This document shows, piece after piece, positions 6,001 to 12,000 of a stretch of DNA of 49,096 nucleotides. The stretch is taken from IMG/VR virus record IMGVR_UViG_2541047773_000006, one strand, 5' to 3'. Positions within the stretch are counted from its first letter, which is position 1; each line of letters starts with the position of its first letter. The stretch comes from a virus (lineage: Duplodnaviria; Heunggongvirae; Uroviricota; Caudoviricetes). The position numbers are program-made.

Positions 6001-9000
6001 GCTTTCTTTAATTCCTTTATTGCAAAGGTGGTAAGCATATTTTATTTTCTTAGTCATCACCATGACTCCGCCTTTACAGGTAAACCATCACGACCGAGGA
6101 AGACTTTAATCATGCAGTCAGTAATGCATGTTTTTGTGGTCAGGTTACGAATATAAAGTTTTCGCTTTTTAATATTGTTTGCCGAGGCAATATATGTCCG
6201 GCCGTTATGAAGAACATAATCACCAGGAGTCACACACTGACGTGGTATTTCATCAGTTCCGAAGTGATGAGCAATCATAATTATCTCCATTTTCACAAAT
6301 GAACTTTGTTGATGCGGTGCCTGGTGCCTCCAGGTGACGTTAACCAGTTAACAATTAACGCCGGATAATCCACCCATAACTCTGATGCTTTTAACTGTTC
6401 CGCGTGCGCTTAGCCGCATTCACCGCATCACAAAATTCACTTTAAAAAGGGCGGACATCAGCCGAACTTCAAGAAAAAACTGATGCCGCCAAGGCTACAC
6501 ACAGCAATGTCGTTATTTACAACCGGAGGCGCACTCCCACCATTTAAATTTAACAGACAAGACCGACTCTTTATGGATACCGGAAGTGCGCCTTCGTGTT
6601 GTGCCCAGTTTTATTTCACCACCTCCGGGCTTCGGTGGTCTCGGCTATACCCCTACAGCGAGAGCTTGTGTTAACATTTCAATACCCTTACAGTTGAGAG
6701 TTATTGATATGTTGGATGTATTTACTCCATTGTTGAAACTTTTTGCTAACGAGCCACTCGAAAGACTTATGTATACGATTATCATTTTTGGTCTCACTCT
6801 CTGGCTGATACCGAAAGAGTTTACTGTCGCATTCAATGCTTATACTGAAATACCTTGGCTCTTTCAGATTATCGTTTTTGCCTTTTCTTTCGTGGTCGCC
6901 ATTTCCTTCTCAAGATTGCGAGCACATATTCAAAAGCATTATTCATTACTACCAGAGCAACGAGTATTGCTTCGTTTATCTGAGAAAGAAATCGCTGTAT
7001 TTAAAGATTTCCTTAAAACAGGAAATCTTATTATCACTTCTCCTTGCCGTAACCCGGTTATGAAAAAATTAGAACGGAAGGGCATCATTCAACATCAGAG
7101 TGATAGCGCAAACTGTTCTTATTATCTCGTCACCGAAAAATACTCCCATTTTATGAAGTTATTCTGGAACAGCAGGAGTAGACGTTTTAATCGTTAGCTT
7201 ACTGTGTGCTTCTCCAACCATCGGCGCGCACCAGTTTCGGTTTTAAATGTTTTGCTTTTTGTATACGTCATCGCGGTGAACGTACCGTCCTGGTTGGGAA
7301 ACACGCCACACACCATGGATTCGTTGTTGCCGAGGTCGATTTTTTTGCATTTTGGGAACCCTCACATCTTGTTGTTGCGGATAGAGGCTTCTGCCTGCCA
7401 GAGATCCCAGTCGTTGCTGCGTAGAACCTGTACAGCCTGGCTGTAAGTGATGCCGCAACAATCCATCAAATACTGAACTACTTCGTAATGCACCATCTTA
7501 TCTCTCCCCTTAACGCCGGGTGGCGGAACTAACTGCTGCACTGCAAAATTTGAATCCCGCCGTCATGTTCATACGCCTCGGGCTGGCTACTTAACCCCTT
7601 ACCACTGCCTGGTAACTCGAAGTATTGCCCTGCGTTCTGTGGGGCGGGGTGGGTGGTATGCTGGAACTATAGGTAATGCCTAATTGATTGTCAATAGGCT
7701 ATGCCTAATGTTTTGAGCGTAACCTAATAGGTGATGGCGACAGGAGAAAGTGATGGGGGGTTAAATAACGGAATCCAGGAGTTTTCCGTCAGACCATATA
7801 AGTTTAAGTTCCAGTTTTTGTGATGTTCTGGCTTTTCCGTTCAGATTCTAGAGCTTTCAGATACTTACCCACTTTCATTTCCATCGCTGCTATGTAGGCG
7901 CGAACATCGTGGTCAACCCAATCTGGTTCTGTAGTATTTCCAGATAACAGGAAAGCTACAATCGCTCTTATTTCATCAGAGGCTGCTTGATAAAGGTTGT
8001 TTATATCTAAAAGTTCACTTTTTGTATCTGAATTGGTGGGGGTTGGTATGGGGTATTCGTTAAGCCCCCAATGCTCTGGACCAACAACATCAGAAAAGAA
8101 ACGCCATAATTCTGGAAGTTTATCTTTACTTATGGAGCCTTTCTTAATCCAGTCATAAATTGATGGTGGTTGGACTTTGAAGTGGCGTGCGACCTCCGCC
8201 TTTGATTTGACGGATCCCGATGCGATTTTTTTGTTAATGGCCTGCTCTATCGCTCGGCCTAAGTCTTTACCACTAAGCATTGCTTAATATTCTCCTATGC
8301 TCATTGCATTAGGCAATCCCTACCCTTATCGCATTAGGCATAGCCTATTGACATTTGTGTTAGGCGTCGCCTAATATTTCTGTGTGTTTTTGGAGTTCAT
8401 TCGATGAAAAAAGAGAACTATTCATTCAAGCAAGCTTGTGCTGTTGTCGGTGGGCAATCAGCAATGGCTAGGCTTTTAGGTGTATCACCTCCAAGCGTAA
8501 ATCAATGGATCAAAGGGGTACGTCAATTGCCTGCCGAGAGATGTCCAGCAATTGAACGTGCAACAAGAGGTGAGGTTCTGTGCGAAGAGCTTCGTCCTGA
8601 TATTGACTGGTCATATTTACGACGTTCGGCATGTTGTTCGCAGAATATGTCAGTGAAGCAACTAAATGACAGTAACAAATCCTCATTTGATCATACCTGA
8701 AACATCAAGAGGCAAATGATTCATGAAAATCAAGCATGAACACATCGAATCAGTGTTGTTTGCCCTGGCAGCCGAAAAAGGGCAGGCATGGGTAGCCAAT
8801 GCAATTACTGAAGAATATCTGCGCCAGGGGGGCGGCGAATTGCCCCTGGTACCAGGCAAGGACTGGAATAATCAGCAGAATATCTATCACCGTTGGTTGA
8901 AAGGTGAAACGAAAACGCAAAGAGAAAAAATTCAGAAGCTGATCCCAGCAATTCTGGCAATCCTTCCGCGCGAGCTGCGTCACCGACTCTGCATCTTCGA

Positions 9001-12000
9001 TACCCTGGAACGCCGTGCATTACTGGCGGCGCAGGAAGCGTTAAGTACGGCAATTGATGCGCATGATGATGCAGTCCAGGCCGTTTACCGGAAAGCGCAT
9101 TTCAGCGGCGGCGGGTCTTCCGACGATTCTGTCATTGTTCATTAAGCAAAAGTTTCCATGCTGTTTGTGCTTATTCTAAGCAATCGGGCAGCATCATACG
9201 GGGCAATTATGGCCGCATTACCATACATGCAACTGTACATAGCTGATTACCTGGCTGACACCATGCATTTGTCAGCAGAGGAGCATGGTGCGTATTTGTT
9301 GCTGATGTTCAATTACTGGCAAACAGGAAAGCCAATACCTAAAAACAGGCTGGCAAAAATTGCCCGTCTGACTAACGAGCGATGGGCTGATGTTGAACCA
9401 TCCTTGCAGGAGTTTTTTTGCGATAACGGCGAGGAATGGGTGCATCTTCGGATTGAGGAAGATCTGGCATCAGTCAGGGAAAAATTAACCAAAAAATCAG
9501 CCGCAGGAAAAGCATCTGTTCAGGCCAGAAGAAGCAGAAAGGAAGCAGATGTTCAAACAAAACAAGAGAGAAATTTAACAGGTGTTCAAACAGATGTTGA
9601 AGTGGTGTTTGAACATGATGTCAACACAAAGGCAACTAATAAAGATACAGATAAAGATCTAAAAACAGATCCCCCCCTAAATCCCCCCCGGGGGAATCGA
9701 GGTGTCAAAAAGTTTGACCCTCTGGATATTGCTTTGCCGAACTGGATTTCTGTCTCGCTCTGGCGTGAGTGGGTTGAATTTCGCCAGGCATTGCGTAAAC
9801 CGATTCGAACGGAGCAGGGCGCTAACGGGGCGATACGGGAGCTGGAAAAATTCCGCCAGCAGGGTTTTTCACCTGAGCAGGTGATTCGACACAGCATCGC
9901 CAATGAATACCAGGGCTTGTTCGCGCCAAAAGGTGTTCGACCTGAGACGTTACTCCGACAGGTTAACACCGTCTCGTTACCGGATAGTGCGATCCCGCCA
10001 GGCTTCAGGGGGTAACTGACCATGAAAAATATTGCGGCAGGAGGCATTCTTGAACGTATCCGCAGACTGGCCCCGCCACATGTAACCGCCCCATTCAAAA
10101 CGGTAGCGGAGTGGCGCGAGTGGCAACTTTCCGAAGGCCAGAAACGTTGTGAGGAGATCAACCGTCAGAATCGTCAGTTGCGGGTGGAAAAAATTCTGAA
10201 TCGCTCTGGCATCCAGCCATTGCACCGCAAATGCTCGTTTGCGAATTACCAGGTGCAGAACGACGGTCAGCGATACGCGTTGAACCAGGCGAAATCTATC
10301 GCTGATGAACTGATGACCGGGTGTACAAATTTTGCGTTCAGCGGAAAACCTGGTACCGGAAAAAACCATCTGGCGGCGGCTATCGGGAATCGCCTGCTGA
10401 AAGATGGCCAGACAGTGATTGTGGTTACCGTGGCTGATGTCATGAGTGCTCTACACGCCAGCTATGACGACGGGCAATCAGGCGAAAAATTTTTGCGGGA
10501 ACTGTGCCAAGTGGATCTGCTGGTTCTTGATGAAATTGGCATTCAGCGCGAGACAAAAAACGAGCAGGTGGTGCTGCACCAGATTGTTGATCGCCGGACA
10601 GCGTCGATGCGCAGCGTGGGGATGCTGACAAACCTGAACTATGAGGCCATGAAAACATTGCTCGGCGAGCGGATTATGGATCGCATGACCATGAACGGCG
10701 GGCGATGGGTGAATTTTAACTGGGAGAGCTGGCGTCCGAATGTCGTCCAGCCAGGAATTGCGAAGTGATTTTTACCGGGAGGAAATTTTAATGGAAACCG
10801 TTTTTGATGCACTGAAAGCAATGGGAAAAGCCACGTCGGTAGAACTGGCTGCGCGACTTGATATCAGTCGTGAAGAAGTGCTGAACGAGCTGTGGGAGCT
10901 TAAAAAGGCTGGCTTCGTTGATAAAAGCGTATACACCTGGCGTGTGGCTGATAACAACGTTCAGCAGGAACAGCCAGAGCAGGCAGAACTGCCGGAAGAA
11001 ACCACCACGGCAACAGTAGCGAAAATCTCAGAGTGCGATTTAACCGCGACGATTGAACAACGTGGCCCACAAACGGCGGATGAACTGGCTACGTTTTTCG
11101 GCACCACATCACGCAAAGTGGCTTCAACGCTGGCAATGGCAATCAGCAAAGGCCGTCTGATTCGCGTTAATCAGAACGGTAAATTTCGTTACTGCATGCC
11201 GGGCGATGATTTACCAGCAGAGCCGAAAGCTGCATCGGTAACGGAAACTGATGGTAAAGCCTTTCCTCAGCCAGCAGGTGTTGCGTTACCGGGACAGGAA
11301 GCTGCAACACAGGAAGATATTAAAACAGAAACTGTGGCGGACATTGTGCAGTCGTTGCCATCGTTTACCGAAACGCGAGCGGATGACCTCGTTCTGCCAT
11401 CGCTGCATATGGCAAACCGCGAACTGCGTCGGGCGAAAAATCATGTCCAGAAGTGGGAGCGTGTCTGCGCCGCGCTGCGGGAGCTGAACAAGCACCGGGA
11501 TATTGTTCGACAGATTACTGATTCTTCTCGCTGTGTTGCATCGGAAAAGTGATTGCCGGAGGCGCTTATGGCAAAAGTATTTACACAAGAAGAGCGGGAA
11601 AAAATCAAGGGACAGGTTGTTGAGCTAGTACGCCGGAGTGGGCGCGAGACGTTACGGCAACTGGAAGCCAAGACAGGTGCGACAAGATATCTGATGAGCG
11701 TTCTCGCCAGAGAGCTGGTTGCCAGTGGCGATGTATACAACTCTGGCTACGGGTTATTCCCGTCTGAACAGGCTCGTAAGGACTGGCAAAATGCCCGCAA
11801 AAAACTATCCAGGGCAAAGGTGAAGAAACCATCTGTGGTTGATCCGGACCTTATCTGGTCATTACCTGACGGAGAAATACGTCGTTATGACAGGCACCAA
11901 AACATAATTTGCTGTGAGTGCCGGAAGAGCGAAGTTATGCAGCGCATACTGGCATTTTATCAGAGAAATTTTCGTTATTTATAGACGTTACTCGATTAAA

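Follow-up and report, generated by a model that had tools for sequence, protein, structure and literature searches.

The racR-ydaS-ydaT region considered here lies in a 49,096-nucleotide stretch of viral DNA (IMG/VR record IMGVR_UViG_2541047773_000006, Caudoviricetes), which as a whole is referred to below as the window. Our central conclusion is that YdaS is very probably the Cro analogue and YdaT the CII analogue of a Rac-family lambdoid immunity switch, the toxicity attributed to them being an off-target action of YdaT on the RcsA/B regulon of the host. Beyond this we propose, as a claim standing evenly between right and wrong, that the YdaT-dependent "establishment" promoter of the Rac family is located beside the YdaT-box (-10-like hexamer TATGAT, 8695..8690) and not about 190 bp away at the published promoter PracR4, and that the window holds an apparently complete, maybe viable Rac phage.

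The locus, its promoter, operators and regulators, as well as the debate on toxicity, are already known for the identical proteins of Escherichia coli K-12, whose cryptic prophage Rac provides the reference locus (racR-ydaS-ydaT, MG1655 b1356-b1358). There, racR could not be deleted unless ydaS-ydaT were also removed, and RacR was found to bind the intergenic region (PMC5700373, PMC5700377), hence the RacR control and the harm on derepression that the original prediction for this locus assumed are both on record. Jobling argued that YdaS and YdaT correspond to Cro and CII and become toxic only if misexpressed (PMC5917428). K-12 RacR was described as acting through four operators (PMC9638921) and as an octamer (PMC11014345), and low RacR levels raise xis and int about 100-fold and lead to Rac excision, which YdaS overexpression also drives (PMC9638921; PMC11014345). 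Later work found that YdaT alone is toxic, not YdaS, and that this toxicity requires the host rcsA gene (PMC11014345), and that the binding sites of YdaT comprise the intergenic region, the YdaT-box and a position upstream of rcsA; acting through the YdaT-box, YdaT activates leftward transcription and thereby raises racR expression (PMC11879457). The homologues of prophage CP-933P likewise act as Cro and CII equivalents and form no toxin-antitoxin pair (PMC8630535, PMC9986795). What is said below on binding, repression, activation and toxicity is taken from these K-12 experiments, and the copy in the window would be expected to behave in the same way.

Regulators, operators and promoters

The window corresponds to positions 2599430-2648525 of NZ_OZ040973.1 with one mismatch in total, and the RefSeq annotation of that record was used. 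The gene ydaS (8404-8700, plus strand) encodes a Cro-like helix-turn-helix regulator of 98 amino acids and ydaT (8723-9145, plus strand) a CII-like transcription activator of 140 amino acids, whereas racR (7804-8280, minus strand), divergent from ydaS, encodes the 158-residue prophage repressor, the CI analogue. The ydaS-ydaT pair had been predicted at 8404-9145, and the open reading frames lie exactly there. The 1.6 kb racR-ydaT stretch aligns with K-12 MG1655 at about 99% identity; the YdaS and YdaT proteins are 100% identical to their MG1655 counterparts, all seven nucleotide changes (one in ydaS, six in ydaT) being synonymous, and in RacR A116T is the sole change, which leaves 157 of 158 residues in common. 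The arrangement is also that of Rac, as predicted, with divergent racR, operators, PydaST and YdaT-box all present.

Concerning homology, YdaS matches both the Pfam family PF15943 (YdaS_toxin; E=2.6e-31, 107.7 bits, cut-off 30) and PF14549 (P22_Cro; 36.8 bits, cut-off 30.2), its PHROG match is phrog_35, and its homologues in the PDB are Cro proteins (3BD1 with E=3.9e-10, as well as 5W8Y, 8CO2, 8C7K and P22 Cro 1RZS). YdaT matches PF06254 (YdaT_toxin; E=1.8e-11, 44.7 bits, cut-off 21) and phrog_163, "CII-like transcriptional activator" (E=2.2e-37), and aligns over its full length with the PDB entries 8BT1 (CP-933P YdaT) and 3C4R. It retains H56 and R57, involved in DNA binding, together with L107 and A110 of the oligomerisation helix, the residues that were mutated in the K-12 work (PMC11879457). 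RacR is recognised by the NCBIfam RacR equivalog model (244.8 bits against a cut-off of 200), and in Pfam shows only a weak N-terminal HTH_17 match. The ydaS gene is the first of the rightward operon, divergent from racR across shared operators, and ydaS-ydaT open an early-right operon that continues with the replication genes ydaU and ydaV (9158..10768, plus strand), the former O-like or primosomal (DUF1376) and the latter a DnaC-like helicase loader according to Pfam and PHROG. A consensus scan found no terminator-like sites on the plus strand from ydaS to ydaU; two "terminators" which it returned on that strand were discarded, as they are merely RacR operator palindromes.

The rightward promoter PydaST, analogue of lambda PR, is found at 8348..8377 on the plus strand as TTGACA-18-TAATAT, with 10 of 12 consensus matches. 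The original prediction relied here on a strong consensus promoter, and the promoter is indeed present, although the match by itself is not significant: a 2-kb scan found three consensus promoter matches versus 3.2 expected, and consensus scans for promoters and terminators are generally uninformative in this region, their counts equalling the shuffle expectation. We accept 8348-8377 as PydaST because it is the orthologue of an experimentally mapped K-12 promoter (PMC9638921, PMC11879457), whose transcription start is known, whose mutation abolishes activity (PMC9638921) and which in isolation reaches up to 25,000 Miller units (PMC11879457). Hexamers and spacing are identical to those of K-12, and the spacer differs at two positions.

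Four palindromes of the pattern TAGGC-n3-GCCTA, or variants of it, form the OR analogue. Operator 1 (8274-8286) covers the racR start codon, operator 2 is at 8310-8322, operator 3 (8335-8347) abuts the PydaST -35 hexamer, and operator 4 (8361-8373) lies within the PydaST spacer, reaching into the -10 hexamer. The K-12 RacR consensus, (T/A)TAGGC-n3-GCCTA(T/A), is backed by DNase footprints (PMC9638921). Allowing at most one mismatch, TAGGC-n3-GCCTA occurs five times in the 49-kb window, and all five matches fall within the roughly 700 bp between 7670 and 8373. This interval includes two further RacR-type palindromes, 7670-7682 TAGGTAATGCCTA and 7695-7707 TAGGCTATGCCTA, which overlap a PL-like promoter (7666..7694, minus strand; TTGACA-17-TATAGT, 11 of 12 matches) located just past the racR stop codon. 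Its sequence is identical in K-12 and it points leftward to ydaG, ydaF, kilR, recET, xis and int; in the K-12 transcriptome, RacR depletion raises ydaG, ydaF, kilR, ydaE and racC 40-70-fold (PMC11014345). Judged from sequence and position, 7666-7707 is the putative OL/PL analogue, placed as in lambda, and the predicted operators and promoters as a set occupy lambda-like positions. It should be noted that the cited K-12 papers describe only the four racR-ydaS operators and term the RacR regulon not yet characterised.

The racR-ydaS intergenic region (8281-8403) differs from K-12 at 7 of its 123 positions (5.7%), a divergence which resembles the synonymous divergence (dS) of ydaT, 0.065; for the three genes that flank the region the figure is about 0.9%. 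None of the seven substitutions falls in a RacR half-site or a PydaST hexamer. The minor promoter PracR2 is altered by two of them, which turn its -10 from AGTAAG into GATAAG.

The YdaT-box and leftward transcription

The YdaT-box (8716-8733, ATGATTCATGAAAATCAA) is an inverted repeat lying over the ydaT start codon, unchanged from the site footprinted in K-12 (PMC11879457). It fits the inverted repeat (A/T)TGATT-N6-AATCAA expected at a cro/ydaT junction, and in all related loci it is found at -7 from the ATG. The box also marks the point at which homology breaks: the stretch that starts with the YdaT-box is present in 1833 of the 5426 complete genomes of E. coli, the Rac-type ydaS accompanies it in just 555, and upstream of it at least eight unrelated cro-type cassettes with different repressors are found. 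Such mosaicism is typical of a lambdoid immunity cassette, unlike that of a toxin with a private repressor. Across five alleles (dS 0.04 to 0.63) the ratio of nonsynonymous to synonymous divergence (dN/dS) of ydaT is 0.07-0.11, thus the gene is under strong purifying selection.

On the minus strand, 20 nt past the YdaT-box, a -10-like hexamer TATGAT (8690..8695) is proposed to belong to a box-adjacent analogue of lambda PRE. A minus-strand TAnnnT at 20-21 nt from the YdaT-box is present in all eight unrelated cro-cassette classes. This spacing is the only one, of all tested, that is common to the four Rac-independent classes, a result reproduced by one shuffle in 200,000, and in three more classes, which carry a 34%-identical YdaT subfamily, both hexamer and spacing recur. 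The geometry suggests that the centre of the YdaT-box would lie near -41.5 of the leftward promoter, the arrangement of a class II activator. For CP-933P, the YdaT-activated promoter was reported to lie "between ydaS and ydaT" (PMC8630535), which agrees with the box-adjacent placement.

The K-12 paper assigns YdaT activation instead to PracR4, some 190 bp from the YdaT-box (PMC11879457). In the window this published reverse promoter corresponds to 8494-8526 on the minus strand, with a -35 TTGACG (8526..8521) and a -10 TACGCT (8499..8494). Both hexamers are identical to those given for K-12 (PMC11879457) and are separated by a 21-nt spacer; the form TTGACG-16..18-TACGCT was not found. PracR4 is a software prediction, and the main text of that paper does not mention primer extension (PMC11879457). 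Given that the published K-12 reporter held both candidate promoters, the choice between PracR4 and the box-adjacent site was left open by it. The conserved -10-like hexamer suggests that a CII-type establishment promoter adjoins the YdaT-box, instead of or besides PracR4. The comparative data point to such a PRE-type promoter, proof of which would tidy the published K-12 model, and, if the proposal is true, the disputed "toxin" phenotypes become testable as lysis-lysogeny functions in a maybe-viable phage.

Combining these elements with the K-12 experiments, the switch can be pictured as follows. RacR, bound to its four operators between racR and ydaS, would occlude the strong rightward PydaST, and probably also the leftward PL-like promoter with its two further operators. 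When RacR falls, PydaST would transcribe ydaS-ydaT and then ydaU and ydaV. YdaS would repress PydaST and promote excision, while YdaT, probably as a tetramer, would bind the inverted repeat that covers the start codon of its gene and turn on leftward transcription, giving a transcript that would run antisense through ydaS into racR and restore repression. YdaT would also bind upstream of the host rcsA, and the resulting overactivity of RcsA/B would cause filamentation and death. This last branch would explain why racR looked "essential" in K-12, toxicity being the side effect of a phage regulator. The genome matching the window does contain rcsA (205 of 207 amino acids identical), and its version of the footprinted YdaT site keeps both half-sites, a single position of the 6-nt spacer being altered (TGAATTaCCATTAATATA), hence the published host route to toxicity is available.

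Alternative readings and the surrounding prophage

Several facts weigh against so close a parallel with lambda, or against a functional phage. The Peptidase_S24 autocleavage domain was not found in RacR with Pfam; RacR is a functional analogue of CI that stands outside the lambda CI/LexA-type family of cleavable repressors. The repression of cI by lambda Cro had no counterpart for YdaS and racR in K-12 (PMC9638921), and YdaT had no effect on excision there (PMC11014345), so the lambda analogy is incomplete. RefSeq labels two tail-fibre fragments as pseudogenes, which leaves virion production as a candidate property only. Finally, ON470595 (98.3%), the only full-module match in the phage collection, spans the host genes abgB to ttcA; this "partial genome" is a prophage region and no proof of a virion.

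The original prediction saw in racR-ydaST a dedicated repressor-toxin module, an addiction-like device that halts growth once the repressor is lost. The genetics of K-12, where racR is deletable only with ydaS-ydaT gone and ectopic ydaS/ydaT is lethal (PMC5700373, PMC5700377), speak for it, as do the constant company of ydaS and racR across 154 genomes (PMC5700373) and the identity of the proteins here to those of K-12. That co-occurrence, however, is expected for a cro gene and its own repressor in any immunity cassette, ydaT pairs freely with other repressor/cro cassettes, and the homology of YdaS to Cro and of YdaT to the CP-933P CII equivalent marks both as DNA-binding regulators. Moreover, by activating racR, YdaT does the reverse of what one would expect from a poison (PMC11879457). 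In later work YdaS by itself was non-toxic, and the toxicity, confined to YdaT (PMC11014345), depends on rcsA (PMC11014345, PMC8630535); one E. coli B strain does not show it, nor does the CP-933P homologue cause it (PMC11014345, PMC8630535). PADLOC matches no such module. We consequently hold a dedicated growth-arrest function to be improbable: the RacR control and the likely harm survive from the original prediction, but the label does not, the unit being a Cro/CII-type immunity switch at the head of the early-right operon.

Even less can be said for YdaS and YdaT as a type II toxin-antitoxin pair, which we consider barely credible. The idea draws on the small size and adjacency of the genes and on database names (Pfam YdaS_toxin and YdaT_toxin, RefSeq "toxin YdaS" and "toxin YdaT family protein"), yet those names derive from a prediction tool, and tests revealed no toxin-antitoxin behaviour (Christensen-Dalsgaard 2010, as cited in PMC5917428; PMC8630535). 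Co-induction of YdaS with YdaT gave no additive effect (PMC11014345), the repressor is the divergent RacR (PMC9638921) and not a toxin-antitoxin complex, and YdaT combines a POU-type helix-turn-helix domain with a four-helix-bundle tetramer fold (PMC9986795); YdaS and YdaT alike bind DNA through a helix-turn-helix and do not qualify as a type II system. The PADLOC defence models match neither RacR nor YdaS nor YdaT, and NCBIfam returns nothing above cut-off for YdaS or YdaT, results on which a toxin-antitoxin or defence reading was rejected. The "toxin" labels of the databases should hence not be taken as evidence of a toxin-antitoxin or growth-arrest system.

A further explanation, which we rate as a serious prospect though somewhat short of even, is that the harm of RacR loss comes mainly from lytic development, i.e. 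in-situ replication, KilR, holin and endolysin, with YdaT toxicity playing a minor part. The window keeps a Q-like gene (14580-15116), the holin, endolysin and Rz genes (16405-17578) and the genes from terminase to tail, which are absent from K-12, and kilR lies downstream of the PL-like promoter and its RacR operators; on the other hand, deletion of kilR did not permit deletion of racR in K-12 (PMC5700373), and the late genes and any antitermination step have putative functions. This explanation complements the Cro/CII switch and does not exclude it. In a full-length prophage with lysis and virion genes, racR loss would be harmful for more reasons than ydaST, so RacR loss here should amount to prophage induction and not only to YdaT-driven filamentation. 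Derepression should release the whole early programme, and possibly lysis, and consequently deletion of racR with and without ydaST, the experiment attached to the original prediction, would not isolate the effect of ydaST.

The prophage that carries the switch is a Rac-family lambdoid element of about 50 kb at ttcA, the same chromosomal site as in K-12 (adjoining ttcA, intR), and an attR-like ttcC sequence is found about 0.8 kb past the window end. K-12 Rac equals this prophage minus 11240-17134 and 19564-31173, with the right end rearranged. Among the pieces lost from K-12 Rac are the rest of ydaW, a DUF977 gene, queH and hokD/sok; the first block holds the Q-like gene, two tRNAs and the lysis cassette, and the second runs from terminase through the portal, capsid and tail genes. 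The element is thus far more complete than K-12 Rac and has the look of its undeleted, ancestor-like form.

At its right end, inside the attR-like site, the window carries cdtA/cdtB/cdtC, an alpha/beta hydrolase gene and ompT (44304-46404, plus strand; 46474-47958, minus strand; 48143-49096, minus strand). RefSeq labels cdtB and cdtC as cytolethal distending toxin (CDT) type IV and cdtA as type I; a Rac-family phage therefore has a genotoxin as cargo. CDT-I and CDT-IV genes flanked by lambdoid prophage genes have been reported previously. RacR here probably governs phage induction and the mobility of the cytolethal distending toxin genes, a role beyond that in a cryptic remnant.

Other features of the element concern RNA genes, replication and annotation. 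Genes for tRNA-Thr(tgt) and tRNA-Gly(tcc) lie at 15479-15632, flanked by the Q-like and holin genes, and two type I toxin-antitoxin pairs, RalA small RNA/ralR (1557-1735) and sok RNA/hokD (12902-13227), are present, their RNAs scoring above the Rfam gathering threshold. The 12-mer GC(T/A)GATGTT(C/G)AA occurs in four copies in a 300-bp stretch inside ydaU (9301-9601), maybe origin iterons as in lambda O. The ParB-like reading frame ynaK (19311-20102) is open over 263 amino acids, and RefSeq annotates only its first 258 bases in the identical record, as an incomplete pseudogene.

Comparison with related switches

With K-12 Rac, the switch shares gene order, chromosomal site, YdaS and YdaT, the PydaST hexamers, the RacR half-sites, the YdaT-box and the PracR4 hexamers. 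What differs, besides the intergenic substitutions, is the prophage around it, which at about 50 kb keeps the blocks deleted in K-12 and carries cdtABC and ompT as cargo.

The PaaR2-YdaS-YdaT region of CP-933P from E. coli O157:H7 shows the same CI/Cro/CII-type layout; where its ydaS and ydaT meet, TTGATT-N6-AATCAA serves as the recognition site of YdaT, which turns on a leftward promoter at that place (PMC8630535, PMC9986795). In contrast, YdaT and YdaS share no more than about 30% and about 26% identity, respectively, with their counterparts here, PaaR2 takes the place of RacR, a ParE2 toxin-antitoxin pair lies within the repressor operon, and the CP-933P YdaT is neither toxic nor rcsA-activating (PMC11879457).

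The lambda cI-cro-cII region differs more in its parts than in its plan. RacR and YdaT have no detectable sequence homology to CI and CII, RacR lacks the S24 domain and is reportedly an octamer (PMC11014345), and no N-like or CIII-like gene was identified in this Rac prophage. The OR analogue has four operators versus three in lambda, and the YdaT-box would be centred near -41.5, in a class II position, whereas CII flanks the -35. The plan itself is common to both: a repressor gene divergent from cro-like and cII-like genes, multiple operators over PR and PRM, a second operator set at the leftward promoter, O-like and P-like replication genes downstream, and a CII-type activator that would drive a leftward establishment transcript antisense to cro.

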